Notes: generated from the letters alone by a model not told the origin. A stretch of 64,000 bases of DNA from Bilabrum cf. latius (GCA_965178125.1 OZ237745.1:186001-250000); one strand, 5' to 3'; positions 462 through 64,000 are shown, numbered from the stretch's first letter. A program made the numbers and translations.

Positions 462-3400
462 ATGCTTCGAAAACGTGATATTATCGGAAGCTCCAAACGA
501 GGTTTATCACTATCCAAAAGCAGTGGGGGGTCGGGTATCCTGCGCAAGAGGGGACCATCAAGACTGGTCGCTGCAAAGAGCCACGGCGTGGCCTCAAACG
601 CCCCGCTTGTTCGTGCTAGAGTAAAGCCCGCCCGCCAAGCTTCAAGCGTAGAGTCATCAACAACCAGTGCCAGCGTGGGGAGCGCCGTTCGTGAAACAGC
701 AGACGGACGTGGGCGTCATGGTCGGGGTTTTGGCTCTCGCAAACGGCAAAGAACTCCTGCAGCCAGCGCGGTCGAGCCTGACGAAGTACAAGCCCTGGTT
801 GATTCGCTATAGTCATCTATATCTGGGGCCTCCCTGCAACGAGAGGCTTCTTCTGTCGCGGTGAGGCCAAACGAGCCATCGACGGATGGGTTGCAGTTGC
901 GCTGCCATCATTGCGCCCAGTATCAGCTCGACTGTCTCTGACTCAACCCCGATTAAATCCAATGCCACCGCAGTTATAGCTCATTCAAAGGCTACCAAGC
1001 GCCGCTAAGTCTGCGTCCGGCCTGTCATCCGCCAATCCGTCGGAGCAGGACTCGCGGCACGTGGCGACTGCAGCGGCTCAGGCTCTCGCACTCATGCGGC
1101 GCAGCTTGCTAGGGCCGGTGAGGCGCGCTGCCGCCTCTTTTCACGCGCTGCAGGCCGCTTCGCACGAAGCACAGAAGCTCAAGTCGGCTTGGGACGCGGC
1201 TAAATCAGCCGCCGAGGCCAGCCACGGTCACGGTGGTGGAGCAGATTCTGGCGCTGCTGCCGCGGACCAGTCGGGAGGACGCACCGCAGCACTCGGCAGT
1301 ACCGGAGTTGATTCATCCGATGCAGCGCTCATACAGAAGAAGATCGCAGCAGATCCCACAGTCAGTGCGGCCCGCGCCCGCGCAATCGAGGCTCGCCGAA
1401 GGGCGAGGAGGCACCACGGCATGCTGCAGCAGGCGCTGGCCGCGCGCCGGTCGGCAGCCTTCGCCGTCGAACCAGTCGTGGAAGCCATCCTTCGAGCGGC
1501 TGCCTGGCTGCTTCCCGCGGCACTGAGGGCTGGGCACGACTGCATGGACCAGACCGCAGCTGCTGCAGGTCAGAGTGCGGTTAGAGCGAGCTGGCTGCAG
1601 ATCGCGCTGTCGCTGCTGCTGGCGTGCTACCACCTGGCCATCAGCTGCGCCCCGCTAGTTTGCCTGCAGAAGCGCCGGGGCCTCCGTGTGTTGGCAGGGC
1701 TGCTGCCTCTGATTGGTCCTGCTGTAGGGGCCCTCGAGGAGCGGCGCTGCAGCGTGACCCGGACAGTTGGTGCGGCAGTGCGGGGCGGTGGCAAGAGACG
1801 AAGGGTAGAAGATGCACCCACTGGTGCCGCCGATGATTCGAGGCTAGCCAGCACCTAGACCAGCAGCACCAGTAGCACCGGCAGCGGTGGTAAGGCAGCT
1901 GCGATAGACTGCACGGAGCAAGACTCCCCGGAAGCCTACTCCCGCAGTGCCGCAAGGCTGCTCGCACCTGCTGCAGCCTCGCTCTCTCGTGCAATGGGCG
2001 GTAGTCTGCCCCCTCCCTCGCTGATGGCGCTGCTGGTCCTGCGCCGAGCCACGGCCGGTGCGGTGCCGGGGGCGGACGACGACGACGAGGCATGCCACGT
2101 GCTGGCCGCGGGTGCCGGCAGTGGCTGCGCGGATGATGGAACCCAAGGATCGCCGCCCTAGCAGCAGCAGGTGCCTCCCGCCCCGCCCAGACACGCTCCC
2201 GATCGAGTGCTTGTATCAGAAACGAGCGTTGCCCAGTGGTCGAGCCTTTCTCTGCAGCTGCAGCGCGGATTGAGGGCTCAGGTGCTCGGCGCCAGCGCTG
2301 GTGGAGGTGGCGCAGTGCAAGGGGGAGGAGCGTCCAATGCCCTCCAGCTCGCTGCTGGGCTGGTGCGAGAGCTGGAGGCCTCGCTGGGAGAGTCAGCCGA
2401 GCGGGATGCGCTGGATTAGTCAGGGCGCGAATCAAGCACCGGCTCTGCAGAGCAAAGCTTCGACGCATTGGCTCGGCTCCGGTGCCTCAGGGGTGTGCTC
2501 GCGCTCCGGTTGCTGGAGGCGGCCACCTATGGGGAACAGGCTCGGGGGAACAGTCTTGCAGTGGCCGCTACAGTGCTCGTGGGACGATCTGGGCCGGTAG
2601 GGTCGGTGCAGTCTTGTTCAGGTGCACCAGTGCGCATGGAGTCGGATAGGGCGCGATCGCTGATTTCCGTGCTGCTCGGTGTGACTTGCCTCGCCGGGAG
2701 GGCGCAGCGGTCTAGCTCGTGGTCCGGCTGGAAAACTCTCCCTATCGAGGCAGAGCTCCTTGCTCTCAGGGTTCTGTCCAATGCGACGCATCACTGCCCC
2801 GCTGCGGCTGCAGCTGTGCCCATGGCCCGGCCAGAAGCAGGCTCGGCGGGTCGCGCTGCAGCGGCTGTTCTAGTGCCAACCTGGGGCAGCAGCAGGAACG
2901 GCAGTGGTGATACCGGGGATGCGGTTCCGATTGACATGAGGGAGTGGCCGGTGGGTACGCGGCAGCTAGCTGCAGCCGAGCGCGAGCTGAGAGAGGCGGT
3001 GCAGAAGGAGAGTGGCAGGGACGATCTGCTTGCACCCGTGATGTGGCTAGACGACGGGCCGAGGGATGCAACGGAGGCTAAGCTCGGACTGTCAGGAAAG
3101 AAAGGATCAATGGGGGCTATCTCAAGTGCCGGCGCCACTAGTTCTGGCTTCACAATACAGCGCGCCGAGAACCAAGATGGGTCTAGTTCAGGCTCAGGCC
3201 ACAGGCTCGCGTGGAGCCCTGCCTCCCGTCGTCGGCTCTGCGGGTGGGGCATCCGTGTGCTGCTGGCATCCGCGCTGAGGCACGCCAGCGAGGTAGTGGG
3301 CGGTGGAGTTCAAGACGAAGAAGGCGAAAGCACCGAGAGCACAGCAGCTAGCAGCGGTGTTGCCGAGAAAAAACGCCTGACAGCGCACGACCTGGCCGCC

Positions 3401-6400
3401 TATGACACGCTCGTGCTAGCACTGTCAGTACTAGCCAATACCGCAGAGGGCTCCCTAGCGGCACGCGCAGCCATCGCAGCCGCGGGCGTGCCGTCTGTGG
3501 CTGCTCCGTGGATGCGAGCAGCCGCGCTGAAGGCACAGATCATGGTCGATCCTTCGGCATACAGCGGCCTGCAAGAGGCACTGGATGGCAGTGGAGGAGC
3601 AAGCCGTAGCTCGTAGACGGGCTTGGGTCCCGGGTACAGGGCCGTGCCGCCTATCCGCGACCCACCATACGATAGCCCACACGGACACGGCGATCAGGGT
3701 GTAAGCAAGAGCAGCGGCAAAGGTGGGTTGCAAGTGGCTAAAGAGGAGCAGTCCGCGGTCGATGTCACCGTCCCGTGCCTGCTGCCCTTACCGTACACAG
3801 AGACGGTTCCAGCACCCGCGGCAATCGTTTGCATGCTGCTAGCAGCAGCAGTTCGGGTCGGTCCAGCCGCGCTGGCAGTCTCCCAGGAGTCCAGCGGGAG
3901 CGCCATAGCCGCTGTCGAGAAACCAGCCGAATCTGATGACACATCAAGTCGTCAGGCCGTGAGGTCTAGAGGGGACCAACAGCCGGCAATGGATGGAGAC
4001 TAGGGCAGCGGTGGCCTGCCCTGGGAGAACTCAGATGAAAGCAAGCAGCAACCGCGGGGTGCGGCCACCAATAGCAGCAGCAGCAGCAGCAGCAGTGGAA
4101 ATGGAAATGGAAATGAGACTGCCCCTGCAGCAGGGGTACGTATTTCAAGCCAGCCAGTCGCCACTGGAGCCAAACCAACGAGCGGGACCATCGATAGCGT
4201 GGATCTCAGCTCGCAATCCACGGAGCAGTCCCTCATCGTAGGCGGATATTGCGCCATGCTGCTCCTGCTGCTCTGCAGGGGCAACGGAGCGGCGTGGTCG
4301 GTGGCTCGTGCGGCCCTCCCTAAGCAATCGCACGAGGTTCTCACGAGGCTGGGTAGCCTGCGCCCGCTCGCCGGTAGCTTGCTCCTGTGGCGCGTGTGGC
4401 AAGGCCAGGTAGGTGTGCTCACGACCGAGGCAGACGATCTGATCAGGAAAGGGCTAGCCGAGGTGGCAGCACTAGAGCGCGGGCTTGGAAGCCGCTCCAT
4501 GAGCCAGGCCAGATCCAGGGTGCTTCTGACAGAGGGGCGGGCCGCGATGGATGACGCCGAGGAAAGCTGCGGCAATGATTCTGGGAGTGGCTCGTCCTCG
4601 TCCAAGGCAGAATCGTCGTTGGCCTGGTGCGACCCGGACTACGCGTCAGACGGGGAAGATGCTGTGCAAAAACGTGTCCGCCTCGGCCGAAACCACAGGC
4701 CAGCAGCCGCACTACGACCTGCAGGCCATGATAATGCGGCCAGCGGGGGCACGGGCAGCGAGGCCCCCGGGCTGGCTCGGTCGGCCACGGCAGGCGGGAG
4801 AATAGAGAGTCCCCAGCGCAGGCGACCGTCCTCCCCATCCACGCCGTCCTCCTCCTCAAGGAAGAACGCACGCGGCAGCCCCGCATCCACTCCGCGGTCC
4901 AAGAGCCCAGGGAACAAGCGCAGTCCTCGGAAGAGTCCCAGCGGCAGACCCTCCCCATTGGCCCGCAAGAAGGTGTCCCCTGCCCGTAGGCGACTCATAC
5001 TGGGCGCTGAGGGCGGCGGCTCGCCGCGTCCCACGAGCCCACTCGAGGCCGCTGCAGGGGCAGAAGTGATCGAGCCGCCCAGGGTGCGCGCTCCGACGTC
5101 TGCCGGTGTGGCTGCTTTGGTCCGGAGCAGCTCCACGGGGTCTCCTTCCAAGCACGGTGGCAGGGGCGGGGGCCGGGGAGGCGTCGGGAGTCCCATGGCT
5201 GGGTCTAGGCTACGGAGGAGCAGTCCCTTGAGCGCAGCACGGCTGCGTGCCTCTGCCTCTGCCTCTGCGTCTGCGGTGGAAAAGAAGCGAGCGCAGCAAA
5301 ATAGAGTAAGCCGGCAGAAGGCAGGAGATGGGACTGTCCTGGGTGGCAACTCGCAGCCGTCAGCTTTGGACGATGTTGATGACAGCGACGATGACAGCGA
5401 CGAGGACAGCGACGAAGGAGCGGGTGGCGCAGCTGCTGGAGATGACTGGGGTGATGCAGCCAGCGGGGACGGATCGCCCAGGGGGGAAGTGAGGGGGTCG
5501 CCAGGCGCGCGAGGCGCCGGTCTCGGCACCGAGTCCGCACCTGCTGGCCTGGCAGGTGACGCTGGCGGGCTAGACGACGATGACCACGACGCGCTGGGCG
5601 TCCGTGGCAGCTCTCGCGGTCGCGTTAACGGACGTGGTGCACCCGGCGGCGTGTTCCGTCGAGACCACTCGCCGCGCCGCTCCAGCCCGCTGCGCCGACA
5701 GGTCTCTGCACCTGCCAATGGCAGTGCTAGTGCGACAGGTCCTGTGAGCAGCAGCAGCGGCGGCATAAGCAAGGACGGCACCGCAGGCAGCGGCCTCTAG
5801 CCGCAAGGCATGGACCTATCACTGACCTCCTCGTCCTCTTCGCGGTCGTCGTCGATGGGCTTGGATCTGCGGCAGGAGGGCACTGCCGAGGAACAGGAGC
5901 AGAGCCAGTCTGTGAGCAGGAGTAGCAGCAGGAGCAGGAGCAGGAGTAGGGGCAGGTGGGATACGTCTAGGAGAAGGAGGCCGCGGGAGCCGCAGAGCAA
6001 GGGCAGGCAAAGCAGCGTGGGGCGGGATTCTGTCGGGAGCGTCGGGAGCACGGCAGGCGCCGGTGCGAATGAAGAACTTGCCTTACGAGGTGAAGATGAG
6101 AAGAATGCCGGTGAGGATGCCGATGAGGATGATGACGATGGCGAGGACGATGTATTTGCCCTCGTGGATCGCGACATCGACCGGCTGGTTGGCGGAGCAT
6201 CTTCGCGCCGCGGATCGGGCGTTCGGGGGATGCTGCAGAGCCCCATAGGTTGGGGAGGTGGCGGCAGTGCAGTGCAGGCAGTGCGTGCAATGTAGTCCGG
6301 TGTCAGGCTGATGGGGGTGCAATCTGGAGGTAATAGTGGTGCGTCGGGTCCTGCAGCGGGGTCTGCTGGACTGACGAGGACCGGGAGAGGAGGCAGCGGA

Positions 6401-6478
6401 TCGGGTGGGCGAGGGCGATCCGGGAAGGCGCCTAGTAGGGGCCGCAGTGCGGGCGCACTTGATTGGCTGGACGGCTGA
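462..6478 (+). CDS. WAPL: WAPL (wings-apart-like, cohesin release factor) domain protein, ~1967 aa with TAG=Gln
   Basis: Exons 462-860 and 974-6478 (phase-0 intron). One frame with 9 in-frame TAG, ending TGA at 6476-6478. WAPL-type helical motifs occur in the expected order: LALRLLEAATY, LRVLSNATHH, DTLVLALSVLANTAE, QSLIVGGYCAMLLLLL. They are separated by low-complexity inserts. Confidence 0.7.
861..973 (+). other. spliceosomal intron (113 nt)
   Basis: GTGAGG...ACCGCAG. Removal joins the frame of 462 to the frame of 1061 and removes an in-frame TGA. Confidence 0.8.
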
Positions 6479-6600
6479 AATGACACGGGGTGCAGTAGAT
6501 GCTGTGCACGAAGAGTTTCAGGTGTTCCAAATTTCATGATTTCGTGAGAAGACATGCGTAGATGGTCTACCTTTGCCACCGTTGCTACTGCCACTCGCCA

Positions 6601-6836
6601 TAGTCCAAACTGCAGCCGCTCTTCGCTACATGCTGTAGTCCAAACTGCAGCCGCTCTTCGCTATATGCTGTAGTCCAAACTGCAGCCGCTCTTCGCTATA
6701 TGCTGTAGTCCAAACTGCAGCCGCTCTTTGCTACATGCTGTAGTCCAAACTGCAGCCGCTCTTCGCTATATGCTGTAGTCCAAACTGCAGCCGCTCTTCG
6801 CTATATGCTGTAGTCCAAACTGCAGCCGCTCTTCGC
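6601..6836. repeat. 35-bp minisatellite, 6 full copies plus one partial
   Basis: Unit tagtccaaactgcagccgctcttcgcta(t/c)atgctg starts at 6601, 6636, 6671, 6706, 6741, 6776 and 6811 (partial). Head-to-tail with no spacers. Confidence 0.97.
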
Positions 6837-8228: not shown

Positions 8229-8949
8229 ATGTCAAGGCAAGGAGCGTCACTTTAGAGTTACAACAATGAACTAGTAAAGTGTGAGCCTGGTATTCCGCAC
8301 AATACGTGTGATTTTCCCGCTGGTAGGCCAGAGGTTGGACTCTATACCTGCCACCACTGCAACACAGTCTTCTAATGCTCCCATGCCCATATCCTTTTCG
8401 TCCAGGCATTGAGGACCTTCGTGAAAAGCGAGAGGAAGTCAACCGAACCATTTTGCGAATTGAGGAGGAGAAAGCTAGGCTGACCAAGGTAAGCAATGCG
8501 ATCGAGCCTATTGCACATTTCATGCCATGAAGCGGCAGGATATACCTAGACTTCTTTGGGTGGAATTCAGTTGTGGTAGTTGTTCTTTCATTACGTGTTG
8601 AGATGTTTGATGAGTATCGAGTGTAGCTAGGTGCAAGCTTATGGGATTTCGCTTCGATGACTCCAACATGCAAATTACCATCTCGCAGGAGCAAAGCCGC
8701 ATTGCCGAAAAGCTCGCCAAAATGCAAGAAGAACTGTCCAGAAAGATTGTTGCGCGAAACGAGTACGATACTACCATTTAGGAGACCGAGGCTGCGTACA
8801 TGAAGATTCTGGAGAGCTCGCAGACGCTGCTGAACGTGCTCAAGCGGGAAGCAACCAACCTCACGAAGAGGCGACAGGCATCTGGACCTGGTGGTGGATC
8901 CAGTGGTGCAGCTGCAGGCGGAGCAGCGGCATCACCCGGCGGATACTGA
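8229..8949 (+). CDS. SSNA1: SSNA1/DIP13/NA14 centriole and axoneme microtubule-binding coiled-coil protein, 131 aa
   Basis: Exons 8229-8280, 8406-8488, 8689-8949 give MSRQGASL[TAG][22 protein letters not shown]...RNEYDTTI[TAG][27 protein letters not shown], ending TGA. This closely matches the family ([22 protein letters not shown]...[17 protein letters not shown]). The gene is absent from the supplied ORF track. Confidence 0.96.
8281..8405 (+). other. spliceosomal intron (125 nt, phase 1)
   Basis: GTGAGC...TCCAG. Splicing rebuilds the conserved Cys of ELVKCIEDL. Confidence 0.93.
8489..8688 (+). other. spliceosomal intron (200 nt, phase 0)
   Basis: GTAAGC...TCGCAG. Splicing restores the SSNA1 frame and length. 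Confidence 0.9.
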
Positions 8950-15600: not shown

Positions 15601-16580
15601 AGGGCGGGAATCCGGTGCATGCACCGAGCGCGCATGATCATCGCTCGGCTCCTACTGGGCGTGTAAGCACGGGAGGAGCTCCTTATTCAAGCTCACTGGA
15701 ACAGCAAGCATCCACGCCTCCCAGAAGGAAGGAGGAGGGTCATGATGTGGAAGTCCATGGGACACCGCAAAATGCAACCTCCAGCCGTGCAATGGGACGC
15801 AGGTCCGCAGAGCTCAAGAGGCCGTTGGAAGGGTCCGACGAGCAAGTGACTTCTTCATGGATGAACCGGCACCGAGCAAGTGCTTCAGAATCGCCCCCTT
15901 CCAGGCCGGCGCACGCCATCCAGCCATCCGTACTGGCTGCTGCATCGCCCCAAAAGGCAACCAACTTGGAGCCTCTCGAATAGTACCACCTTGCGAGCGC
16001 TCGACAGAGCGTGGGGTATAAATACGCCAGCAGTGTAGCAGCCATGGTGGAACGGCCTACGCCCCGGGAGCAGGGGAATCTAACTGCCGTGCTCGGGTCT
16101 TCAGGCGGCCAGCACTGGCTCAAGGGGGGGTTGTCGAGTCCCGTGGCATCGCCATCTCGGCAGAGAGGAGGCAACGCTCCATCTTCTACAGGTTAGCCAA
16201 GTGGCCATGTTACTGATCGCGAAGCGGGCTTTGCTGTGTCGGCGAGTCCAGCGCGTGCAGCCGCAAGCGCAGCTCCGCAGACTCAGTCGCTGAGCAGGGC
16301 TAGCCGAGAAGCCGCGAGAGGTGCCGCCCCATCGACCACTGGTGCAGGTGGTGGTCCGTATCAGCAGGAGCAATCACTGGTCGCTGACAAAAGCACAGGA
16401 CATGGCATCGCTGCAGGCAGGCAGCCCTAGGGTAGGACCAGTGGCCCTTCCCGGCAGCATCCTTCGCGCGCGCTGGAGGGGGTTGTTGGCGGCATCCCTG
16501 CCATGGAGAGGCGGCCGCAGAAGGACCAGCAGCAGGGGCAGCTCAGCTCCAGCAGCAGGATGCTAGTTCCGATCAGCTGA
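9636..16580 (+). CDS. Large low-complexity coiled-coil protein, CCDC66/CSPP1-like segment, ~2314 aa
   Basis: Single frame from ATG 9636 to TGA 16578-16580, interrupted only by ~22 TAG. Charged coiled coils EEYKDDL[TAG]RQIEERKRRE and ARVLQE[TAG]MDLKKQKEKDAKRRQEEEDAREEAKMQREREML resemble CSPP1/CCDC66 repeats. The frame is well supported; the family call is tentative. Confidence 0.7.
10443..10998 (+). repeat. 187-bp intragenic direct duplication
   Basis: 10443-10629 and 10812-10998 appear identical. Offset is 369 nt (in frame) and each copy carries an in-frame TAG. Confidence 0.95.
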
Positions 16581-16740
16581 GCCGCACTTAATGCCTTGCT
16601 GTGACCCTCCGTGGGCAGGTTGGCAGGCACCCCGAAGCCTGCAGCTTGAGTGGCTCATCACATCCGGTCCGCATGCGACTGACGTCGCCCGGCGGATGGG
16701 TTTCAGGCGGCATTCCTGTGGCTGGCAGGGAAACGTTGCA

Positions 16741-19700: not shown

Positions 19701-20565
19701 GCCGGACCAGACGTGCATGCTGCTGCCTCTGCGGGTTCTCTTCCCGGACCCAGAGGCTGCCTTCAACGGGCTTGCTGCGTGGGTTCCCGCCTACAACAAC
19801 GCGGCGCAGTACCAGCTGATGGTAAAGATGGCCACGGAGCTCGGCGGCGATCCGACCCTCGCTGTAGAGAAGGCAATGTACATGCAAGACAACAGCCTGC
19901 CACCAGAGCTCCCCATTCTGTTGGACATTCTGGGCATGCGAGAAGTTGGATCTACGACTGGATCCACCGGCGCGAGCCCGGCTGCCCAGGCTAGCACTGG
20001 CACGAGCAAGTCACCGGCAGGCTCCCCTGGATAGCCGCCCGGAGCAGCGTCTCACGTCCACACCCACAGCGGGCTGCCGCACAGCAGCCCGCTGCTGGGT
20101 CCCGGCGGTCCTGATGCCGCGAGTGCAGCTGCCATCGCTGCCCTTTAGGCAGAGGACGAGCGACTTGCCGGCGGCGTACACGGCCATGGCGGTGGGCATG
20201 CGCCTGCGGACGGCGGTTCGTTTGCGCTTGGGCCCCCGGCCGTCCCTGGGTCCGGCCTGACGCCAGGAGAGACCGCACAGCTACAGGAGGCACTGCGGCT
20301 GTCCAGGATAGAGGCAGGAGCGGGAAACTCGCAGCCCGCCGACAGCGAGACTGGGCAGCTTGCGCAGTCGCAGGACCCGGCACTGTTGGCCGCCATCGCT
20401 GCGTCGACGAGGGGTGAGACCGGTGGTACGGGAGGCACGGGCGGTACCGTGGGCAGCGGCAGCGCTAGTGGTTCACCGGACAAAGGGATGCAGATGACCG
20501 GTGACCCCGACATTGATGCTGCGCTCCGATTGTCCATGACACAAGCTAGTGGGTCGAGCACCTAA
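16741..20565 (+). CDS. Multidomain adaptor: Cys/His zinc-ribbon, WW-like, PH-like, GYF and three UIM-like motifs, ~1274 aa
   Basis: One frame with 11 TAG, ending TAA at 20563-20565. Motifs: CSTFLPQFYRKFLCANCFNDIAAH; PESWQKQQGPDGVVYVNPTSGQS; RGWLQKRPSKGGYFSRWLRRY; LWRYIDDFGRQQGPFPERSMKAWTQGGYF; LQEALRLS, DPALLAAIAAS, DPDIDAALRLS. Confidence 0.8.
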
Positions 20566-20813
20566 ATCGCCAGTATCGGCCAGGGAGAACTGGAACAACA
20601 GTAACATGGGGTAAACATCGCTGACCCGGCTTTCGGGTGCTGTGTGTGCCAGGTGAAACTGTGCCCTGGGACGGGCAAGATGATTGATTCTGCATGCTTT
20701 GCTAGCGCTGTACTTCACGACCATCTTTTTGAGCAAATACCAGTACTACACGAGGCGAAATGGGCGCCAGCACAGCCTAGCTCTGTGCTCTGCGTCCAAA
20801 ACCCCAATCCCAG

Positions 20814-23146: not shown

Positions 23147-23332
23147 GGAACACAATCGTGCAGTCGATCTGCTCGGCCAGTTCGCGAACGGACACAATCC
23201 GCGGTCGCAACCATTTTTGCGACCAACCATCGGTGCTGAGGTCGCATACTGCTGCAGACTCCAACCGTGCACACATTGCGTATTTGTGTCCGCATGCCGA
23301 TCTCTGTAACTTGATCTGGAATATTATAGGAC
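23147..23332. promoter_or_regulatory. putative bidirectional promoter between the EFHC gene and the channel gene
   Basis: 186-nt spacer between divergent ATGs. Inferred from geometry. Confidence 0.45.
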
Positions 23333-48739: not shown

Positions 48740-51700
48740 TTAGCGATTCCCTTTAGAGGCAGCAGCAACTCCATCGAACGCAGCCTCAAGCACGGCCGAT
48801 TCGGCCTATCTTCCACTAGTGCTAAGTCCAGCCCGGGCGATGAGCCGTGCAGCCTCTACACCCCCGTGCGCGCGCAGCAGAGCGTCAAACTCCGACATGC
48901 CACTCGCAGCGTGAGCCAGTGGCGCGATTATGGCCGATGCTTTTTCACTGCGGGGTACGCTCGCCCACCTCAGCGCCTGCCTTGCCCCGCTGTGCCCGTG
49001 TAGCCGCATGGCAGCCGCGAAGGTGGGCGTGCATGCAGGCGGCGCCATCAAACCTGCCGTGCCACTTGCCCGCTCTGCCGCCTTGGCAGCCGGCATGGGA
49101 GGGATTCCGATTGCTTGGTCCATGATTCCTTCGGGGCGGAGACCACCGGCAGATGACTTGCCCCCCTTACCCCGAACACGTCCTCGTCCTCGCCCCAAGC
49201 CTCGCTTCTGGCCCAGCAGCTCCTCGTCCTCGTCCTCGTCATCGTCCTTGTCTTCGTTTTCGTCTTGCTCCGAGCCGGATTCCGACTCCGAATCCGAGCT
49301 CGAGCTCGAGTCACCGTCGTCGATAGAGCCATCCGCACCCTTCCGCTTGCTGTGGCCCTTGCCAACGCCCTTGCCCGTGCCCTTGCTCCCTTGCTTTGAG
49401 CTACCATCGACATCCGCACCGCTAGCCCCCCCATGCCCATCAGCAGGACCGGCAGACATGCCTGCCATGATTCCATCTAGCGCGAGGCTCTGCTCCAGCT
49501 GGCCATCCTCGCCATCATCGCTGAGCCCCCCTCCATCACCCTCCCCGCCCGTGCCTTCAGGCGCAGGCAGACCCTTCCTCCGCCTCGTCTGCCTGCGCCT
49601 GGAGCGACGGTACGGATTCCCGAACAGCACGGCGCCGGCCTGGCCCCCACCTTCTTCCTGCAGCGTGGGTCGCGGATCCCGCAGAAGCCCTGGGCCGCTA
49701 GCCAGGGCTAAGAAGTCACCCATGAGAGCCGCGGGACGGTGGAACGCATCGTCATCGCCCCTTGTCACTGCGGAGGAGGCAGAGCTCCACACGGAGCCAG
49801 CATCCGACATCGAGTCGGCAGCGGCAGTCTGCTCCCCTTCCGCTAGCCCCCCCGTCCCCGTGCCGGTGCCATCCACGTCGTCGTGAGGGTGCAGCTCCAG
49901 GGGCGGCTCAACGGATATGTCGACGGACCCCCCGCGCACTCGCCTGTCGGCCGCCAAGTCACTCACGAAGCTCGGCGCCTCGCTCAGCACGCTCTCAAGG
50001 TCGTCTACTTCCAGGGCACTGTCTGTAACGCTCCTGCTTGCACTGGCCAGAGCTACTGCGCTGGCACTGCTGGCATCGTCGGGATCTGTTGCTGTTGCTT
50101 GCGCGTCAATGTCGTCTACCGTAGCGAACGCATGGGCAGCTGTGTCCTTGGCCTCGCCGCCACCGCTCTCCTGTGGCTCCAGCGGCCGCAGTTGACCCGT
50201 GGTGGCAGCAGGACCAGAGCCTGCCTTCGCTCGCATCCTCTGAAGGGCTGTTTCTCGCGTGTGCTCCTCCTCAATGGCCCTCTTGCGCTCGTTGCTCAAC
50301 CCAACAACCAGCCTAAGGCGGTCCAGCACCAGTTTCGGGACGTACTTGGGCCCGGCCTCCTGAACCTGCCTCGTCATGCGCTGCAGGGCGTACCTCTTTA
50401 GCCCGTGACCCAGCGGCGTCATGTGCTCCGATGGCAACGATCTTACATACCTGCGGAACCGCTCCTGCCACCCGGGCAGTCTCGAGACAGCAGAGCGGAG
50501 ATGCCGCATCCCTCCACCCGGCCTCGCGAGCTCCTTCCTGCTCGAGGTGGTCTCGTATTCCTGTCGAATGGACGGATCGTCTTCCGTGGCACGATACAGC
50601 TCCAACACCAATCGGAATGCAGTGCGATAGTCGGCAGGCAAGAGCACCAGCACGCACGAGGCTTTGCGACCGGCGGGGTTGGACGCAGACGCCGACGAAG
50701 CAGCGCCACCGCCTAATCCATAGCCAACCACGCCGATCTAGGCAGACTCATGCGCCGCACTCACGCCGGCGTGCTGTCCTCTGAGTCTGAACTCGATCGA
50801 TGGGTCCGTGCTCATGCACATGAAGCCCACGGGGCCCACCAGGCGAGATCCCTTGGGCACCTAGCCGACAGGTGCTATGAATTTGTTCCCTGGCGTAGAA
50901 GCACCGTGAGATCCAGCTCCAGCTGCAGACCCGGACCCAAGTCCCTCGCTAGCAGAGCCAGGCTCCTCCTGTGGCGCTCCAGCGCCGCTGTATTCGTTGG
51001 ATGCAGCTGGCTTGACCATGGATCCCAGCTCATGCGGCGTCCTCGCTTTCCTCACGAACACCGGCCAGACAAGTGACTGTTGCACGCCCTCGTTCTGCTC
51101 GGCCCTCCTGCTGGCTTGCTCATAGAGCGCCTCGGTCAGCGGGCACCGACCGATGTCGTAGACATCGCAAGGGAAGCCGCAGTCTCGCAGGGCGGTGATA
51201 GCTGTCTCAGGGTGGTGTGCCTGCCTCTAAGGATCGACCACCAACTAAGGCCGGGCCAGCCTAGGGGGCAGTGGTACCTGAGGAACCCACGTGAGTGATT
51301 TGCTGGCTGTTTTAGAGCCCCCGCCCGCCTGATGACCTCCCACGGATCCTACCGCTTGCAGCAGAGGAGGCACGTCTTGCTTAAACACAGAGGTGTGCTG
51401 CAGCTTGCGAGGCTCGTAAGACTCGGGAAGCGGCCACCACGCCTGGCCGCTGCTGCTGTCGAGCCATTTGTTCCCTGACGGTGACCCACCGAACATAGAC
51501 CTCTGCGTGCCCGTTCCCTTGGGGAACAAGGGCACGGCCTGCGACCTGGCGGCCTGGGACAGCAATGCACTGCCTGCCGCGGCTCGCCACTCGGTTGAGT
51601 TGGGCGCGTGCTGTTCCCTGGACCCGGGGCCTCCTGCGTGCGATGACGACGTGCTGCCGCCGTATTTTTCGCCCGCCTGCCGTGGCACCGCCTTGGCCAC

Positions 51701-53272
51701 GGCAAAGTCCACGAGGACACCAACACGCCTCGCTTCCTGCTCAGCACTGGCGGCTCCAATTGGCCGCAGTGGCGGCAAGCCGGGGAGCTGACCTGGTCTA
51801 TAGACGGTATCTCGGTCATATCCGTCACGTCCGGCACCTAATTCAGCACGGTCTTCTATTTGCATCGGTTCAGCGGCGTAGAGCGACCTATCGTGCAGCG
51901 CCGATGCTGCATCGGCTCCTGCGCATGCAAGCAGCCTTCTCATGCGGATGAGGTCCTGCGCGGCAGTGAGTCCTCCCGCATGGGACGACATGATGGGTGG
52001 TTTGCCTGACACGCATGAGGGCACGAACCGCACATGGCCTCCCGTGGCAGCGCACAGATGCGCCCAGTCTGTCCAGTCGCGCCGTGCCTTCCGCCTGCGG
52101 GCCTCTTTACCAGCATCACGGTCAGCATCTGACGCGTCCGCACGCGCAGAGCAAGCTTGCTGTTCGTCGCCGAGCAGTTGCTCCACCAGGTCGGTCGCAA
52201 CGAGGCACAGACGGTGCCTCGGTCCTGGCAGGTAGGCGCACAGCTCGATCCCTGGAGACTCCGGCGGGTCCGATGCCAACGAGGTGGCGAGTGCGAGGGG
52301 AAGCCTGCTGCCGCCTGCAAGACGCGATGAGTGACCGTGATGCGAAGATGACGAGTGCGAGGAGCCGCTTCCTTCGGTTCCGCTGCTGTCTCCGCGCGCG
52401 GCGCCGTCAGACCCGGACCCGTCCATGGGCGCCTGTCCTTTCGCTTTGGCGAAGGAACGGCTTCGCGCATCTGCAGGGCCTCGATGATCGCTGCCGTCTC
52501 GCATGCAGCCCAACAGAGCGAGAGCGGCAGCATGCTTTGCTCTCCTTGACGGAACAAAGCCGCTGCGTTGAATGCGCCCGTCTGTCACTTCAGTGGTAGA
52601 TTTTTCGTGTAACAATACATGCAGCATGGACTGGGTGTGCCAGCTTGATGTCAGGGGTGGGGGCGGAGCGACAGCCGCAGGCTTTCCGGCGGTGAACGCC
52701 AGCACCAGTCCAGGGCGATAGAAGCGCATGTCGTATCCGCGACCGGCCAGGTCTGCAGACGACAGAGCATTCAGCTGCATAGAGGAGATATTGTATCAAT
52801 GAAACTAGTTGGTGCTGGGATGCTTGGCGTCTAGCTAGCTATTTGAGAACCCAGACCGAATGCGTAGTCTTCTTACGCTGTTGAGTTCGAGAAAAGCCAT
52901 CCGGACCGCCTCCAGCAGGCCACAAGCACAATACTTTGTCTGCACCCCGCTGAATGCCTCGATCATGCGGATTGAGGTCGCTACAGCTGCATTGCTGTCC
53001 ATGGCTGCATGCCTGACAAGGGGAGACCTCATCGCGACACCGCTTGCCAGCGTGGATGAAAACTGCTGTCTTCCACTAGGGTGAGTCGTTATAATTATGG
53101 TTTTAATCGGATCTTCAGCCGCATCTTGCTGTACTCGCTTCCGCTAGTATTGCTGCAACCTACCCGCGATGGCATCCTCTGCAGCTCCTTTCAACAAATC
53201 TAGAACGCGCGTGCCGGACGGAAGCTGCCGCTAACTCGTCGGACCGTTATCAATTACAATTGCAACGTCCAT
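48740..53272 (-). CDS. INTS6: Integrator complex subunit 6 (INTS6/DDX26)-like VWA protein, ~1476 aa
   Basis: Exons 53272-52877 and 52774-48740; 7 TAG; ends TAA at 48742-48740. Motifs colinear with INTS6: IVIDNGPTS..GTRVLDLLKGAAE, AVRMAFLELN, DLAGRGYDMRFYRPGLVLAFTAG, LCAATGG, WWPLPESY, PCDVYDIGRCPLT, LVLLPADY, WQERFRRYVRSLP, FGNPYR. Confidence 0.85.
52775..52876 (-). other. spliceosomal intron (102 nt, phase 0)
   Basis: GTAAGA...ATGCAG. Removes an in-frame TGA and restores INTS6 motif spacing. Confidence 0.85.
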
Positions 53273-53918: not shown

Positions 53919-56900
53919 ATGATGAATCGACGCTACAGGGGAACCAACGTAGCAAAAGCGAAGAATTCTATCTGTGAGAAGACACTTAGCTTGGAAGAGG
54001 TGCTGTTCCCTTGTTTTGGGCTTCACAATCCATGCGGTGCCCGTGATTCGGTGAAGCGCCATTTCACGTTTTACCAAACTTCATTAGCTTAATTCACCGC
54101 AGTGGTTGCCGCCGCTACTGCACTAGTATGTTTTACTTCAGTGGAAGCATCAACTTCGTCCCGCCAGCCATTAAGGCGCAGTACATCCAGGCCTGGGCTG
54201 GGAGTTGCACTCGAGGTTTCACAGCTAAGCAGCATTCCGGCAAGCGTCTCCATGCGTAGATCGATCGCCACTCAATCAGGAGTGTTTTTATTTGCTGATA
54301 CGTAGGACGGATACGGGATGGTACCTCGCTTCTAGACGCACGAGGACTTCAGTAGCAACGTGACTGCCCTACCACCACCCGTGGATTCGGGCGTGGCCGA
54401 CCAGGTTTCGCAAGCTGACGCAGACACAGCTGCCATCAACCCAAGCAGGTCGGCTATTGTATTTGCATCAGATTTGGCAGGTGGTGGCCGCAGCTGGATG
54501 CTGTTTAACGATACGACAGGCGGAATTTCAAGCCTCGCCGACGGCCCAGTCTAGTTTCCCGGACAGGGTACCGCCGCGCCGATCCGGATCACGAGCCTGT
54601 CAGAGAAGTCGAGCTGGCTCGGAGATGCCGCAGCTTGTGTCGTGGCGACTGTTGAGTTTGCGTCCAACGGGACAGAGATTGGAACGGTCGTGCTGTGCCA
54701 CGACGCGTAGCGGCCCGTCGGTTCACGAACCTTCGTCGTCGATGGGTCCAGCAACTCTCTCTCGAGCCGCCCCGTGGCTGCCGTGAATGGCTCTGTGGGC
54801 TGCATCTACGCCACCTCCGATGCAGCTCATGGCCATGAACCCCACTGCTTCGACATTGAGGATCACCAGCCTACAGCCCGGATGCTTGCGGATGTGAACC
54901 CAGGGCCGCAGGGAAGCCACGCGTCTTTCACCCATGCAAGGCGTGCCCTTGAGTCTTGTGGTGGCTGGGTCTGTGACTACTTTGCAGTTGGCGAGCAGTG
55001 GCGCGTAGGCTGCGTGCGCTATGGGGACGGTGCCGTGCAGCTGTCAAACTCGGAGTTCCAGTTAGAGCTAAACGACTACAACCCGTTCTGCGTATCACCT
55101 ACAGAGGAGAAGTACATGTACACAACCCACCGTAAGAGCGTACCGCAGGTGATGCACCTGGGCAGCGGCAGTGAGTCCTCTCTCCAAGTCCGAACGAGCG
55201 GCGGGCAGCTCATCCAAGAGAGCAGCATCAGCAACGGCCTCATCCGGGCCAAGGACCCTGTCAGCCGGATCGTGATTGGGTACTACATTTACTCGGGCCA
55301 GTCCTGCAATTACATCTGGGATGCGTCAGCTAGCTTGGAGGCCAGCTGCTACAGAAGCCCACCGACGTCTCTTATGAGCCAGCTGGTGCCTGTGTCTGCC
55401 ACCAAGATCATCGCCTTTGATCGCAGCGGCCTCAACTTCAACCCTGTCATCGTGGAAAGGAGTGCAACAGGAGCGGCGCTGCACACCACGAGGCTTACGA
55501 CCCCGGACGTTGGGGAGTTCTTCAATGAGGTGGTTCATCTTCCTGGCAGCGGCAAGGGTGGCGAGACCGCGCTGATCTTGCTATTCACGTCGGGCTCTGA
55601 AACGAAAATGTGGTTCTGGGACGGGGGCAGTGACTCAGCCATTGAGCGCTTAGACGTCGACACGCCGCTTGGTGAAGGGGCCAGCCATGTGATCGCAGCG
55701 AGCCTTTCAGCGAAGAGCGGGCCCGGTAGCATAGTGCTGCCTCTGTCCAGCTCGACTGGGACAGTGGGTCTTGGGCAGGTAAGGCTTCCCGACTTCAGCA
55801 ACAGCAGCAGCAGCAGCAGCAGCGATGGTAGTACCTCTGGGGTGAGCATCCACATCAAGACTGCATCGGAAGCAACACAGACAGTGATCAGCTGGTAGGA
55901 CACCACGTGGCATGAGGTCGAAGCGACCGGGTTGATGTGTGCGATCAACCTCGGCATGCAATAGCTTGCTGGACCCTTCGCGTGCTACAACAGATCGTCC
56001 GCGCTTCCCATGGACATCGATAGTCTGCCCCTGCACCCGAACGAGACTAGCCGTCCAGCCTACGAGTACAACTCGAGAACCTCCGGTTTGGCAGAAAAAG
56101 CCGTGCACGTCCTGAATGGCGGTATCGTGTTCCACGACTACGACGAAGTTGTTCTTAGGTATTTTGACGGTTCGTATCGTCCTAGAGCTACCGACCTGTC
56201 GGTTTCCATTCGATCGGACCGCCCGTTTGCCGCGGTCGGAGGCAGGAGGCTCTTCATGCAGACCTAGAGCGTGCGCACGGACGGGATCGGGAGGGAGCCG
56301 TACGAGTTCAATCTAGATACTGGGGTGATGCGGCTGGACGAGATTTAGGAGGGTTGGAGGCCGTCGTAGCCGAGAGTTATCGGTGTTATGCGAAAGAGGC
56401 ACGTAATTTTTGACGCCATATGGAACGACCACTACTACCTGTACTCATGGGATCTGTCAGTGCCCAGTGCTCCCGTGCGTAGGCTGCTTGATGACGAGTT
56501 TGGCATCGGACCCGCTGCTGTGAACTCGTGGGATCAGGGCGGCTTGAACGAGCTGATCTTCTCTGATACCGTGATGCGCCGGTGGAGGCTAGGCGAGCCG
56601 ACCAACTTCTTCCACCTGGAAGAGACGGCCGCGGGAGAAGTGCGCATCCAGCGCCGGTCCAACTTCACCTCGGAGCTGGACGCGCCCCTGACCGCGGACC
56701 ACTTGTGTTCCAGAGCGCAGGAAAGCGTATTTGCGGTTCGAAATGGCTCTTCCATGCTTGTGCGGGTCGTTGACGGAGGTTTTCGAACGAAGAGCACCGT
56801 GCAAGTACCTTGGCCAGAGAAGGTGTCGCACATTGAGAGCGTGCAGGAGTTGCACACCGGCCGCGGCTCGCTCGAGATTCTGGTGGTGCTGTCCTCGGTA

Positions 56901-59435
56901 AACGACCGTAAAGCAGAGCGGTACGTTCATCAGATGGTGCTTGATCCGTACACGGGCAACGTGACCTCCTACAGGAGCTATCACACCGACGGGCCGTCGG
57001 CTAGTGTGCTGTCTAACGGGTGGATCTGCTGGTCTGAGGAAGAAGTCTCGAGCGGCGCTATCCCTGTGTGCGACGTGTGGACGGGTCCCGTCAAGGGAAT
57101 TGTCGGGTTTAATGACATCGATCAACGGCCGCCGAGAGATAGAAAGGTTCACTCGATCGTGGGTAGCCAGGTCAGTTCCCACAGCCTCATGGCCGTCGTT
57201 TTCTGGCCCGGGATGGGTCTCACGCCCGTACACATGAGCCTTGAACTGCCGCTGTCCTTCAGTTTCAGCGACCAAAGGTACGTGGTGCTTGAGGACGACC
57301 CTACTGGCGCTGCTCCCTTCCGTGGGTTCCAGCTCTCCGTTGGGCATGGAGTCCGGCACTGTTTCGTGAGACTGCTGGATGGCCAAGCCGGCACCGACGA
57401 GTTCATCTCTCTTGGTGCGCCGGAAAGCTTGCTGTCCATCAGCGAAAATGGCACCATCGCTGAGGCTGAATCTCTTACGGAAGGCACACTTCATGCCGAG
57501 CTGCAACACCTACGGGTGCGCAGCATGGGGAGGCCGGAAGCAGGTAATCGTACCCTCGAGATCCAGCTGATTCTGGCAAATGGCCGGCAGCAATCCGCTA
57601 CTGCGACGGTGTTCGTGGCTGCCGCAGATGACCCGCCCGTTGTGGTGCTGCGACGAGGCGACACCATCGCTCACCATGCCGAAGACGGCGGACCAACGCT
57701 GGTCTTCCCGAACGCCAGCGTCACCGACGAAGAAGGCGACCACGTGCGGCTGATGGTGGAGATCGCAGACCGCCAGTCTGGTGACGGGCTCGTTCTGCTG
57801 CCCGCGCGAGGTAGTGGGCAAGGTGATCGGCTGAGCGAATTTTTGGAGGTGGGTGGCAGAAATTACACCGCAACAGAAAATGCCACGTCATTTCTGCGCC
57901 GTGTTGCCTTCGTGGCTGGTGAGAGTGCTCCAGCATCTCGCACTTTGACAGTGTTGGTCTGGTCTGCGGCGCAGCCATCTGCAGCTCCAGTCGTACACAG
58001 CATCACCGTGCAGATTGTCCCACGGAACGATGCACCGATCGTATCGGGGCCGACCAGCGCGGTGCAGTATACTGAACAGCAGGCGAGCCCAGCAGAGCTG
58101 TTTGATGGGATGGCTGTAGCAGATCCAGACGACACAATGATTTCGGCACAGGTCCTGCTGCGTTCTGCGTTCGCTGGCGACAGCCTCGTTCTCTCCAACG
58201 GCGCCTCTGTGTCCGGGTCTTCGCCCAGCACTGATCCAGTGCTTAGCTCTGACGGCCTATCTGCCGATATTCAGCTCGAAAATATCGATGAAGTGCTTCG
58301 ACAGCTGGCCCTGGTTGGCTTTCGGGGCGCTACTGACGGCACCCTACCTGCCGGTGTGCGATCCGTCACCGTCACCATCACGGACAATGGCAGCGCAGGG
58401 CAGACGCCCTCAAACGCATTGAGCGCAAACTACTCCCGACAGATTGAGGTGCAGCTGCTGCCTAGCCCTAGCCCCAGCCCCAGTCCAGCAAACGAACCGG
58501 TGAGTGCGTGTGCAAATGTACGTTCCCTTGCGCTGCAACTTGCTGGTACACACCTCCTAATTTACTCCTTATGCCCACACAAATACGCGCAGGGGGCTCC
58601 AAGCTCGCCATCGCCATCGCCGTCGTCCTCGCCACTGCTGCCACCGGCCACGGCTCCCCTGCTAAACGACACTGGCTCCAAGGTGTGCCAAGCTCCCAGC
58701 ACTCAGCTGTTGGCGAGCGATCTGGCCGTTGAGATCCAGCTACAGGTGGTCGGTGTCACTCTTGACAACGTGTCCTGCAGCGGGATGCAGCTCCTCGCGG
58801 GCAACATCACAGACGGCACCGGCGTGCTCCCTGAAGACGCGGCTACGTGGGCCTCCGAGGCAGCGACGAATCCAGCTGCTGACAGGCGGGTGCTGCATAC
58901 GCTGGAGGCACGCAGACTGCAAGGAGCATCAAACTTAGGCGACGGCAACCCAACTGTGGATGTTTACGTACAAGTCCCGGCGGACTCGCCCGAGGCCGCC
59001 GCACGTGTGCGAAGTGCGGCAAGTGCGGCCCTGCAGCGGCCTGAGATCTTGGCCCAGGTAGTAGCACCAGAGGCCAGGGACTCGGCCGTCGTGCAGGTGC
59101 CCACAGGCAGCGAAGGTGTCCGGATTGCGTCCAGGAGTGCCGCTGGCGGTGGGGACACGGACACAGGTGGCGAGTCGTCCGATGTGGAAGGCGCCACCAT
59201 CGCCATCATCGTGCTGTGCGTGGTCGTTGTGGCGGGCATCGGCGTCGTTGCCGCGTGCTACTGCAGGAGACCTAGACGAGCTGGCAGGCCAGCTGGCGGC
59301 CAGGGCAAACAAGCTTCATCGTCGGGTAGCGCCGAGGATAGGCGGGGGTCAACTGGGAGACAGGGGCGTGCTGCGGACGGCGACGTGGACTATGCACAGG
59401 TTCAGACTGGTTCGAATCCTGCAGAACAGGTGTGA
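53919..59435 (+). CDS. Type-I surface protein: ELWxxDGT-like propeller repeats, cadherin/Ig-like NDAP repeats, Ser-Pro stalk, TM helix; ~1765-1795 aa
   Basis: Exon 53919-53973 spliced to 54103-59435 (probable further in-frame intron 58500-58592); 9 TAG; TGA end. Signal peptide ILVAAATALVCFTSVEA; HGHEPHCFD...LADVNPGPQGS; DGIGREPYEF; AADDPPVV; PRNDAPIVSGPTSAVQYTE; PSPSPSP; TM IAIIVLCVVVVAGIGVVAACYC. Confidence 0.8.
53974..54102 (+). other. spliceosomal intron (129 nt, phase 1)
   Basis: GTGAGA...ACCGCAG. Removes the in-frame TAA at 54090-54092 and creates a signal peptide. Confidence 0.75.
58500..58592 (+). other. probable in-frame, stop-free intron (93 nt)
   Basis: GTGAGT...ACGCGCAG with lower GC, interrupting the Ser-Pro stalk. 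Confidence 0.65.
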
Positions 59436-61393: not shown

Positions 61394-64000
61394 ATGGAAA
61401 GCTCCATAAATCTTAGTTTAAATACGACTGGCCCGACCGGAGCTAGCTCGATTCTGGATGCGAGCTCTGTCGCGGCTGCTGCAAGCCAGGCCAGGGCATC
61501 AGCTCGTTTAGCTAGGCACCTAAGCACAGCGGCTACTAGACCTTCCACCACGGGACCTGTTCGGGCTGTGCATATAATGCAAACAGATAACTCTGGATCA
61601 CTGTCAGCAGTTGAACCCAAGGCGGCCGACCCGCTAAATGACTCGATCCATAGCAGCACTGCTCGAGGCAAGCCCAGGCGGCCTAAGCCAGGACAACGAC
61701 CTTAGAAATCCGAGCAAGTAGAAAACGCAGCGCCAAGCACATCCTCTGTTGACATTGTAGGTGTGCCGGTTGCCATCTCCTGCCCTGCACAGCAGCCGCA
61801 GCTGCCGAGAAAGCTGAAGGAATCCACCTCAGACGAGAACCATGCTGCCAGCCGCCGAAGTGTCAGGCACCGGCAGTCGCAGCCATAGGATCGATCGTCT
61901 AGCTTTCTTGTAGAATCGCAGCACGAAGCCCCTAATCCGTCTTCGGCTCTACCAGGCAAAAGAGAATCCGCCACACTAGCAGCGGACGATGGACACGAGA
62001 CAGCGAGACGGGGCGGGGGTAGTCGTGCTGGCGGTGGGCAGCTCACGCAGCACGGGTACGATACCAGCTAGAAAGAGAAGGGGCAAACTCAAAAACTTCA
62101 TGACATCCACGGCCAGCCCGCTTCCTTCTCGTCCTACCTCGACCGGACCGACGAGGACGAGGACAGGGACATGGACAGCCGGACTGGTGTGAGGCCTCCG
62201 ACCCTCCCCCCTCGTCAAGGCCTTCTTCCAGGCTACCTGCACTAGCGCTCGGGTACCGCTGCTGCTGATATTGGTGTGACTAGTGCGGTTTCTGGCACGG
62301 ATGTACCATCGAATTCTAGCAGTGCCAGTGCTATTGCAACTAGCAGAGCTGCGACCTTGCGTGACCCCATGCGAGGCAGCCTGCACGGGCACGGTCGGCT
62401 TGCCCAGCAGGCATGGGGTGCTGCAGCTCGAGCTATAGGCCCAGTGCACGCGGCAGGCGGATTCTCGTTGTCGATCTAGCCTGCTGTGGACAGCAGTGAG
62501 GCACGACAGCAGCCGCCAGTGCCTTAGTTTAGTTCTTTCCTCGGAGGCCGTGGAGCACTGCGGCAGAGCCATGACGGAGGTCGTGGTCTCGCCATTCTCA
62601 GAGGCGGGTCCAAATTGCATCCACACGGCAAGAATGTGCCAGCGAGTGCGCGCCACTCCGGTCGTGAGCGAAACGCTGTCCCAGTGCCGAAGCCAGACAG
62701 CGATCACGATCGGTCGGCCAGGCGGCGAAGGTCGATGCCACAGGCAGCCGAGCTTGCCGCCCTGCTCCGACAAGCCGAGGAGCAGGACCTCATCCAGTCC
62801 ATGATCGAGGGCGAAATGCCATCGTTTGCTGCAAGCGACGCCAGCGGTCGCATCGCAACCAGTAGGCATGGTAAGCAGCGAAAGTCTCTCGGGGGTACTC
62901 ATGGTCGTGCTGGACATGGGCCAAGCATGGTCGTGCTGGATGAGGCACTGCTGTCAGTATCCATGCAAGCCCCAGCTTTGCCCGATGAGATGCAAAACGA
63001 GGCCAACAGTGAAAACCATGATCAATAGGCTGATAGCTAGAACACGACAAGAGGCCAACGCGTTGTGCCCGGTGGATCGCGCTCCCGCAAGAAGCCAGCT
63101 CAATCAACGCAGCCCATCGGCAGGCAGCTGCCTTGGGAGGGGCAACAAGTACGACCGCAAGCAAGACCCAGCAGAAGCTCATCTGTCGATTCTAGCCAAA
63201 GACGATAGTCTGGACGATCGCTGGCAGCACCGGAGTATCACCCCGCGAAGAAGCGCAAGGAGCTGTAGCGCATTAGCTTTCTGGACACATCTCGACTCAC
63301 CGTTGGCTCGTATAGCCGGCAGTAGCCCGCTGGTGACTAGAATGGAAGCCGTTTCCTTGATGTTCAGAGTCACGCTCATGCAGAAACAGCTGAGCTTCGC
63401 AATACTTCTGGCGGACTAATTCATGATCGTGGGAGCACGGTCGGTTTAGGCCAGTAGCTTCGATCTGACCCCAGCAGCGCAGACTAGGCACCAAACGAAG
63501 CTGTATCGCAGGCAAAAGAGGGGGCAAGGCAAAGAAAACTACCATCAAGTGATGTATCACCTCCCAGTGACGAATCGGCGGCTTTGACGGACTCTGCAGG
63601 CCCTGCTCATCCGAGTGAGCCGGGGCGTGCGAGCCATGCACAGCCCGGGCCGCAACCGACGCGACCATCCGCGACCAATAGGCATACATTTGCAAGAGCC
63701 AGCCCCGCAGCTGCCATCCAGGCCCTTGCTACCATGCAGCCTCGAGCAGCTGATATGCCTCGTGGGACCATTGACCTGCAAGAGTGGTGGCGGGTGGGCT
63801 TAGATGGCACAGGCAGGCTGGCCATGCCGCCGGTGGAGCAAAGGTTTGACGAGCCGACGGCCGAGGCCATTGAAGTAGCAATAGAGGAAGCGCACGAATC
63901 GAATTCTAGCATCGGCAACCATTCCGGTGGCAGGAGCAGCAGTCGAGAAGACCATCGCCAGCTTTCGGCGGCCAGGCGGATGGGCGCACATCTCCAACGC
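61394..64000 (+). CDS. Low-complexity hypothetical protein, 3'-truncated by the window edge (869+ codons)
   Basis: One frame from ATG 61394 to the window end with ~14 TAG and no TAA or TGA. No domain recognised. Confidence 0.75.

Follow-up and report, generated by a model that had tools for sequence, protein, structure and literature searches.

The stretch of DNA considered here raises the question of which codons end its genes and how UAG is read within them. The stretch (Bilabrum cf. latius, GCA_965178125.1, OZ237745.1:186001-250000), referred to as the window, comprises 64,000 nucleotides (nt), and all positions are counted from its first letter. A preliminary description, made from the sequence alone, had proposed a non-standard nuclear genetic code that uses UAG as a sense codon, most likely for glutamine (Gln), while UAA and UGA remain stops. 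The observations that bear on this proposal, and that uphold it, are (i) a fusion of reading frames that is specific to TAG, (ii) contigs of spliced RNA that retain TAG, (iii) a related metagenome contig, designated L001, that shares the trait, (iv) Gln as the partner residue in 14 of 17 well-aligned TAG columns, and (v) the exchange of TAA and TGA at orthologous gene ends. The window is very probably nuclear DNA of a compact, GC-rich, intron-bearing, cilium-building eukaryote, in which UAG is a Gln sense codon and UAA and UGA are the sole terminators, UGA being the commoner of the two. The corresponding codon table (TAG = Q, with TAA and TGA as stops) is NCBI table 15, as had been suggested.

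Reading frames and stop codons

Frames were scanned on both strands under the standard code and with TAG, TAA, or TGA taken as sense. Under the standard code, no stop-free frame exceeds 1021 codons, and the next two run for 738 and 691. Once TAG is taken as sense, the longest frames, distributed over both strands, attain 2991, 2911, 2496, 1891, and 1780 codons, and the number of frames of at least 1000 codons rises from one to eight. The fused coding frames span 1351-2991 codons on both strands, and those noticed earlier at 9636-16580, 23333-32290, and 48503-39900 are as they had been described. Fifty dinucleotide-preserving shuffles of the window, which serve as the null for frame length, yield no TAG-sense frame longer than 591 codons (mean of the longest, 425). 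Reading TAA as sense leaves the list unchanged (1021, 738, 691) and lengthens no real frame. Reading TGA as sense gives a longest frame of 1147 codons, and the additional long frames are mostly overlapping and out-of-frame.

In-frame codons were counted in nine long frames totaling 17,302 codons, with the two other frames of the same DNA as the control. The nine frames hold 146 TAG, no TAA, and no TGA codons, while the out-of-frame rates are 9.65, 3.18, and 17.1 per 1000 for TAG, TAA, and TGA, respectively. TAG is not avoided in frame, being as common there as out of frame, and TAA and TGA are strictly excluded. The earlier statement that exons are free of in-frame TAA and TGA is borne out by these counts. 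The sole in-frame TGA between collinear frames (52796-52798, minus strand) falls inside a predicted 102-nt GT..AG intron (52775-52876), the removal of which leaves no TAA or TGA ahead of the TAA stop of the 48740 gene. A recount of TAG over all gene models gives about 140-152, depending on the start codons chosen, in agreement with the roughly 150 counted by hand before.

TAG constitutes 14.5% of the combined TAG, CAG, and CAA codons overall. Its density is 4-18 per 1000 codons in the long low-complexity genes, where the GC content at third codon positions (GC3) is 0.54-0.70. The EFHC1 gene (648 codons including the stop, GC3 0.84) has no TAG, and the WD40 gene (GC3 0.83) has one. This pattern suggests that TAG is avoided in genes under strong codon bias, and it is similar to what has been reported for the rhizarian exLh, whose highly expressed genes avoid UAG (PMC5304391).

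Gene ends can be compared with those of L001, a JGI metagenome contig of 4291 bp and 57% GC whose EFHC1 orthologue is 77% identical to that of the window. The gene order GYF-EFHC1-channel is common to both, as the EFHC1 gene of L001 lies between the end of the GYF gene and the beginning of that for the channel. The GYF gene of the window stops at TAA, with a second TAA 13 codons on, and its L001 orthologue stops at TGA within a few residues. Conversely, EFHC1 of L001 stops at TAA at the exact position of the TGA in the window. Since TAA in one species corresponds to TGA in the other at the ends of both genes, TAA is a true stop.

This comparison, together with the codon counts, speaks against the ordinary UAR=Gln code (table 6 type), in which TAA would also encode Gln and would merely be rare owing to the GC-rich genome. 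UAA and UAG are almost always reassigned together, and the uncoupled nuclear codes are few, namely, those of Iotanema, exLh, Scotinosphaera, and a few ciliates (PMC5304391, PMC11687900). The GC content of 61% overall (57-67% throughout the window) and the presence of only two genes ending in TAA are also in keeping with such a code. Yet the nine long frames contain 207 CAA and 538 CAG codons (CAA being 28% of the two), such that about 50 TAA would be expected beside the 146 TAG if TAA were also Gln. The preliminary description had named genome-wide in-frame TAA at conserved Gln positions as the sign of an ordinary UAR=Gln code, and no in-frame TAA occurs in the 17,302 codons. TAA as sense extends no real frame either, and it ends the GYF gene of the window and EFHC1 of L001. 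Because TAA is absent in frame and ends genes, the UAR=Gln code is rejected and can be regarded as close to refuted.

UAG in transcripts and the residue it encodes

At least half of the sampled words of the searched stretch are present in seven public runs from three studies, and contigs of four public runs were aligned to positions 20600-40599. Contigs of two runs, X5 and X6, which come from different studies, both skip a 158-nt intron (22757 joined to 22916; GT..AG on the minus strand). X5 contigs further skip 107 nt (32563 to 32671), 109 nt (33026 to 33136), and 85 nt (34925 to 35011), all bounded by GT..AG. Contigs begin and end at gene borders (23155 for the end of the one from EFHC1, 23268 for the start of the one from the channel), and the depth of X5 varies by gene (133 versus 28). 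The skipped introns, the ends at gene borders, and the gene-specific depth indicate that the X5 and X6 contigs are RNA-derived. This assignment is judged from the spliced joints, since the tool label for X5 is “probably DNA” and none of the runs listed for the sequence is on record as RNA.

One X5 contig of 8117 nt, which covers the channel gene over 23268-31384, is identical to the window throughout. Across the channel gene, exon 3 of the WD40 gene, and the 34995 gene, at least 30 of 43 TAG codons lie within X5 or X6 pieces that show no differences; one X6 piece with one difference was left out of this count. The evidence consists of assembled contigs rather than raw reads, and assembly drops rare variants. 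As TAG is unchanged in spliced contigs, editing or assembly error is very unlikely, and UAG is present in the mRNA, as the preliminary description had asked to see in RNA.

These contigs likewise bear on the view that the TAGs are artefacts, whether from assembly or sequencing error, from pseudogenes, or from mRNA editing to CAG. Nothing was found in favor of this view, and its probability is negligible. Against it stand (i) the occurrence of words of the window in seven runs from three studies, (ii) the spliced contigs with unaltered TAG codons, (iii) the 77%-identical relative, which has TAGs of its own and one in common with the window, and (iv) the strict exclusion of TAA and TGA from these frames, an outcome that decay would not bring about.

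The residue encoded by UAG was approached by tabulating partners at TAG columns, as had been recommended. Proteins of the window and of its relatives were aligned with X at TAG, every TAG codon was counted once, and columns were considered well aligned if the flanks were at least 0.5 identical over 7 residues on each side with no gap within 2 residues. Among the 17 informative columns against close relatives, the partner is Gln in 14 and Arg, Ala, and Leu in one each. One further well-aligned column has TAG in both species. The columns with a Gln partner include a position in the S4 helix of the channel, three positions in or next to its cyclic-nucleotide-binding domain, and three of the four TAG columns of L001 EFHC1.

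The same alignments provide a baseline, for which P0004 and P0023 were dropped as duplicates. Gln stands opposite a true Gln column in 48 of 65 cases and opposite a TAG column of the window in 9 of 11. For columns of Arg, Lys, Glu, Leu, Ala, Ser, His, Trp, and Tyr, the share with Gln opposite is only 0-5%. At the DNA level, TAG codons compared between the window and L001 are matched by CAG in seven cases, CAA in three, TAG in one, and other codons in nine. In close relatives, TAG is exchanged with CAG and CAA as often as would be expected of a glutamine codon.

Distant homologues were drawn from an exhaustive, profile-free search of a 1.84-billion-protein library, for which residues 1-1200 encoded by the 34995 gene served as the query and which returned 64 representative homologues of 32-69% identity. 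Over the 17 TAG columns covered by these homologues, the column-weighted log-likelihood is best for Gln (−46.9), with His as the runner-up (−50.4), a gap of 3.5 nats, and Leu in 14th place among the 20 residues. The share of Gln among the partners is 24% at TAG columns and 29% at true Gln columns. At one TAG column, Gln is found in all eight homologues.

UAG could instead encode another residue, such as Leu (as in exLh), Ser (as in Scotinosphaera), Lys, Glu, Tyr, or Trp. In line with such an assignment, single columns pair with Leu, Lys, Arg, or Ala, Arg predominates among distant homologues at column 900 of the 34995 gene, and an internal repeat in the 39900-48503 gene sets TAG opposite Trp in two sister repeats. 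Nevertheless, no residue other than Gln occurs more than once among the 17 well-aligned columns, non-Gln columns so rarely have a Gln partner, and both the likelihood ranking and the partner codons (CAG 7, CAA 3) point to Gln. Another residue is thus very improbable.

Several points weigh against UAG as a plain Gln codon with UAA and UGA as the sole terminators. They are (i) the three non-Gln partners (Arg, Ala, Leu) in the 17-column tally, (ii) the 10 poorly aligned columns, mostly of low complexity, in which the partners are Gln, Lys, and Gly (two each) and Ala, Val, Ser, and Pro, (iii) TAG column 900 of the 34995 gene, with Arg in 8 of 14 homologues and Gln in 2 of 14, one of these being the locally closest homologue, (iv) the distant EFHC1 homologues, which vary at all four TAG columns of L001 and are uninformative either way, (v) the self-test of the distant-family method, which is circular (the same columns being trained and tested) and shows only that the method is not degenerate, and (vi) the possibility of rare termination at UAG, given that only 13 gene ends were seen.

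The last point leads to the ambiguous, context-dependent code of the Condylostoma or karyorelict type, in which UAG would be Gln inside genes and a terminator near some 3′ ends. Stop usage was sampled from the 13 closed frames of the window, a small number. The last TAG lies 5 codons ahead of TGA in the 39900-48503 gene and 22 codons ahead of TAA in the 48740 gene, and the true C-termini of both are fixed by no homologue. Every closed frame nonetheless reaches TGA (11) or TAA (2), the same division as was first reported, and TAG is required as a stop in none of the 13. The two orthologue ends that can be compared (EFHC1 and GYF) use TAA or TGA in both species, and frames with up to 28 TAG run on for thousands of codons. 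An ambiguous code is therefore improbable, though less so than a different residue at UAG.

Relatives, known codes, and decoding

UAG is translated and equivalent to Gln, and the trait is older than the split between the window and L001. In L001, the EFHC1 frame has five TAG, four of them within the coding sequence, the channel piece has four, and the GYF piece has six. TAG is conserved between the window and L001 at one column. The reassignment predates the split because the trait is common to both and one TAG is conserved.

Close relatives of the EFHC1-like protein come only from metagenomes and assembled public runs, where proteins of 98, 84, and 78% identity occur. Among named proteins, the best EFHC1 matches (from Salpingoeca rosetta, Raphidocelis, and Cafeteria) are only 29-35% identical. 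The ESM Atlas returns only generic EFHC1 clusters for this protein, with all scores below 0.9, and a scan of prokaryotic genome contigs with EFHC1 found no relative. For the channel, the best named matches are fish KCNH4 and a green-algal channel.

Runs X8 and X10 contain a relative at about 90-93% nucleotide identity across positions 20600-40599, in which introns and intergenic stretches show small indels and segments that have been replaced. These two runs are labeled as algae metagenome and as another organism, and relatives occur in runs labeled algae or protist metagenome. Together, L001, P0005 (84% protein identity), and the X8/X10 relative indicate, at the level of sequence identity, at least three or four related lineages. 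Public gene calls of these relatives start or stop at TAG; P0006 and P0020-P0024 are fragments, and P0006 starts after the last TAG of the L001 gene. Standard gene callers cut the proteins of the window organism at each TAG, and its genes are misrepresented in public protein sets and need table 15.

The codon table is the same as that of Iotanema spirale, in which UAG within genes matches Gln and UAA and UGA are kept as stops; UAG is frequent in its genes and is not seen as a terminator (PMC5304391, PMC9161772). Stop usage differs, as Iotanema has 104 UAA versus 15 UGA (PMC5304391), while the window shows the reverse, with 2 TAA versus 11 TGA. Iotanema itself is unlikely as the source of the window, on account of this stop-codon usage and of the GC-richness.

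Typically, the genomes of ciliates are rich in AT and their introns very short. Among ciliates, Protocruzia tuzeti and two phyllopharyngean lineages read UAG as Gln and keep UAA as a stop (PMC11687900), and the window differs from them in being 61% GC, in having genes 4-9 kb long, and in its GT..AG introns, which measure 85-158 nt where confirmed by RNA contigs. The GC content and the gene and intron sizes speak against a ciliate, in accord with the earlier remark that the DNA does not look ciliate-like, an argument from GC content and introns rather than from phylogeny.

Other uncoupled UAG codes are those of the rhizarian exLh, with UAG=Leu (PMC5304391), and of Scotinosphaera, with UAG=Ser (PMC11687900). 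They are alike in that UAG is sense and UAA a stop, but the residue differs (in the well-aligned columns of the window, Leu is the partner in 1 of 17 and Ser in 0 of 17). UAR=Gln has been reported in the algal parasite Amoeboaphelidium protococcarum, hexamitid diplomonads, some ulvophytes, and many ciliates (PMC6299283, PMC5304391). In Amoeboaphelidium, too, a stop has become Gln, and it is reported to read both TAA and TAG in this way (PMC6299283), whereas TAA is no sense codon in the window. Recoded phages with TAG=Gln, such as the crAss-like phages, have the same formal table, with TAG = Q and TAA and TGA as stops (PMC9523058), and that case differs in that the window belongs to a eukaryotic nuclear genome with spliceosomal introns. 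The presence of such introns, along with Gln as the partner residue, also argues against pyrrolysine. Table 15 was originally assigned to Blepharisma in error (PMC5304391).

The type of code is therefore already known (Iotanema, table 15), and the lineage appears new to the searchable literature. A search of main article texts in a library with few subscription journals brought up no GC-rich eukaryote outside the ciliates that reads UAG as Gln, and a prior description is possible. We judge it evenly poised whether the window organism and its relatives (the X8/X10 relative at about 92%, P0005, and L001) form an undescribed GC-rich ciliated clade in which the change of UAG to Gln arose independently of ciliates and Iotanema.

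As to the mechanism, UAG would be decoded by a dedicated tRNA-Gln(CUA), one base removed from tRNA-Gln(CUG), which would pair with UAG and not with UAA. Such a tRNA is expected because the CUA anticodon alone reads UAG without reading UAA (PMC5304391). The release factor eRF1 would have lost or weakened its recognition of UAG while keeping that of UAA and UGA, as proposed for Iotanema spirale, whose eRF1 has a Thr-to-Gly change in the GTS motif (PMC5304391). In our estimation, low-efficiency near-cognate readthrough would not give full-length protein from genes with up to 28 UAG codons. A tRNA scan found no tRNA genes in the window or in L001, and an Rfam scan of the window gave no matches. 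The gene for eRF1 lies outside the window.

As an apparently unrelated lineage, represented by genomic DNA, by transcriptome-like data, and by several relatives at differing distances, it would be a new natural replicate for the question of which changes in eRF1 and tRNA recur. If the window organism and its relatives do form such an independent clade, this would be a non-ciliate case for which genomic DNA exists, such that tRNA-Gln(CUA) and the eRF1 change would be readable from the genome. It would permit a direct test of the encoded tRNA(CUA) predicted in PMC5304391, as well as a dating of the change within the clade.

Genes and other features of the window

The genes and frames of the window are collected in Table 1. 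TAGs had been said to fall inside recognizable domains, and for the channel and the WD40 gene they do. The Ion_trans domain of the channel (residues 178-353) includes a TAG at residue 301, and two further TAGs, at 1143 and 1148, fall in its cNMP_binding domain (residues 1143-1198). In the WD40 gene, the frame that holds its one TAG is matched by WD40 and beta-propeller profiles. For the small coiled-coil gene, the SSNA1-like label corresponds to a single weak match (chain 9dsm_A, E = 0.83); its exons 1 and 3 presumably resemble human SSNA1, a likeness that we take as a lead only. The INTS6 label of the 48740 gene is not confirmed, as neither exon has a Pfam or PDB sequence match.

Table 1. Reading frames and genes of the 64,000-nt window, with their TAG codons and stops.
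Feature	Position	Strand	TAG codons	Stop	Remarks
Long frame, 1891 codons	803..6478	+	8	TGA	First exon may lie near 462-900
Frame, 448 codons	6548..7894	+	2	TGA	Both TAG inside a 35-residue tandem duplication
Small three-exon coiled-coil gene	8229..8949	+	2	TGA	Exons 8229-8280, 8406-8488, 8689-8949 (predicted)
Low-complexity protein, 2314 codons	9636..16580	+	22	TGA	25 TAG in the stop-to-stop frame from 9090
GYF-domain protein frame	16294..20565	+	12	TAA	
EFHC1/Rib72-like gene, 647 codons	20814..22757	-	0	TGA	Three DM10 domains, Pfam E = 2.8e-75
Cyclic-nucleotide-binding cation channel, 2985 codons	23333..32290	+	21	TGA	Ion_trans and cNMP_binding
WD40 beta-propeller gene	32671..34633	+	1	TGA	Exons 32671-33026, 33136-34633, and a short upstream exon
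Membrane protein, lineage-specific family, 1552 codons	34995..39653	+	21	TGA	
2867-codon protein	39900..48503	-	28	TGA	Weak TTL-family match, E = 1.1e-4
Large gene	48740..53260	-	7	TAA	TAG count with predicted intron 52775-52876 removed
Frame, 1780 codons	54093..59435	+	9	TGA	C-terminal membrane span
Frame, 420 codons	60058..61320	-	3	TGA	
Frame running past the window end, 907 codons	61277..64000	+	16		Highest TAG density, 17.6 per 1000

GT..AG introns were predicted by eye in the WD40 gene, the 48740-53260 gene, and the small coiled-coil gene. Those of the coiled-coil gene (125 and 200 nt) are predicted, while for the WD40 gene an X5 contig confirms both introns (107 and 109 nt). The 158-nt GT..AG intron (22758-22915) lies directly upstream of the EFHC1 ATG, and the 85-nt GT..AG intron skipped by the X5 contig at the 34995 gene occupies 34926-35010. 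The upstream exon of the 48740 gene has two TAG. The divergent neighbors EFHC1 (minus strand) and the channel (plus strand) have transcript-like contig ends (23155 and 23268) that are only about 113 nt apart.

The frames at 803..6478 and 54093..59435 have no Pfam match, nor does the protein of the 34995..39653 gene. The 64 representative homologues of the latter from the 1.84-billion-protein library are all short (65-546 residues). By sequence comparison, the family appears sizeable and lineage-specific, with public gene calls that are probably fragmented by TAG or by short contigs.

The WD40 gene is presumably AIP1/WDR1-like, a name that is our own reading. Antisense to it, a TAG-free open reading frame of 403 codons occupies 32683-33894 on the minus strand, with a GC3 of 0.74, as compared with 0.83 in the sense direction. 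Rather than a gene, this frame most likely represents a shadow of the GC3-rich gene.

The product of the 39900-48503 gene (P0003) carries a triple repeat at residues ~2760-2790 (SWQVGKVD / xQVGKVD / SWQMGKVD), in which TAG stands opposite TGG (Trp) in the two sister repeats. Judged from the repeat itself, this TAG looks like a recent, tolerated one-base change. Exact or near-exact internal tandem duplications occur in other coding frames as well, with TAG carried along in each copy. They include a block of ~120 residues in the 9636 gene, one of 35 residues at 6548-6800, and one of 25 residues with two TAGs in the 34995 gene (~38180-38330).

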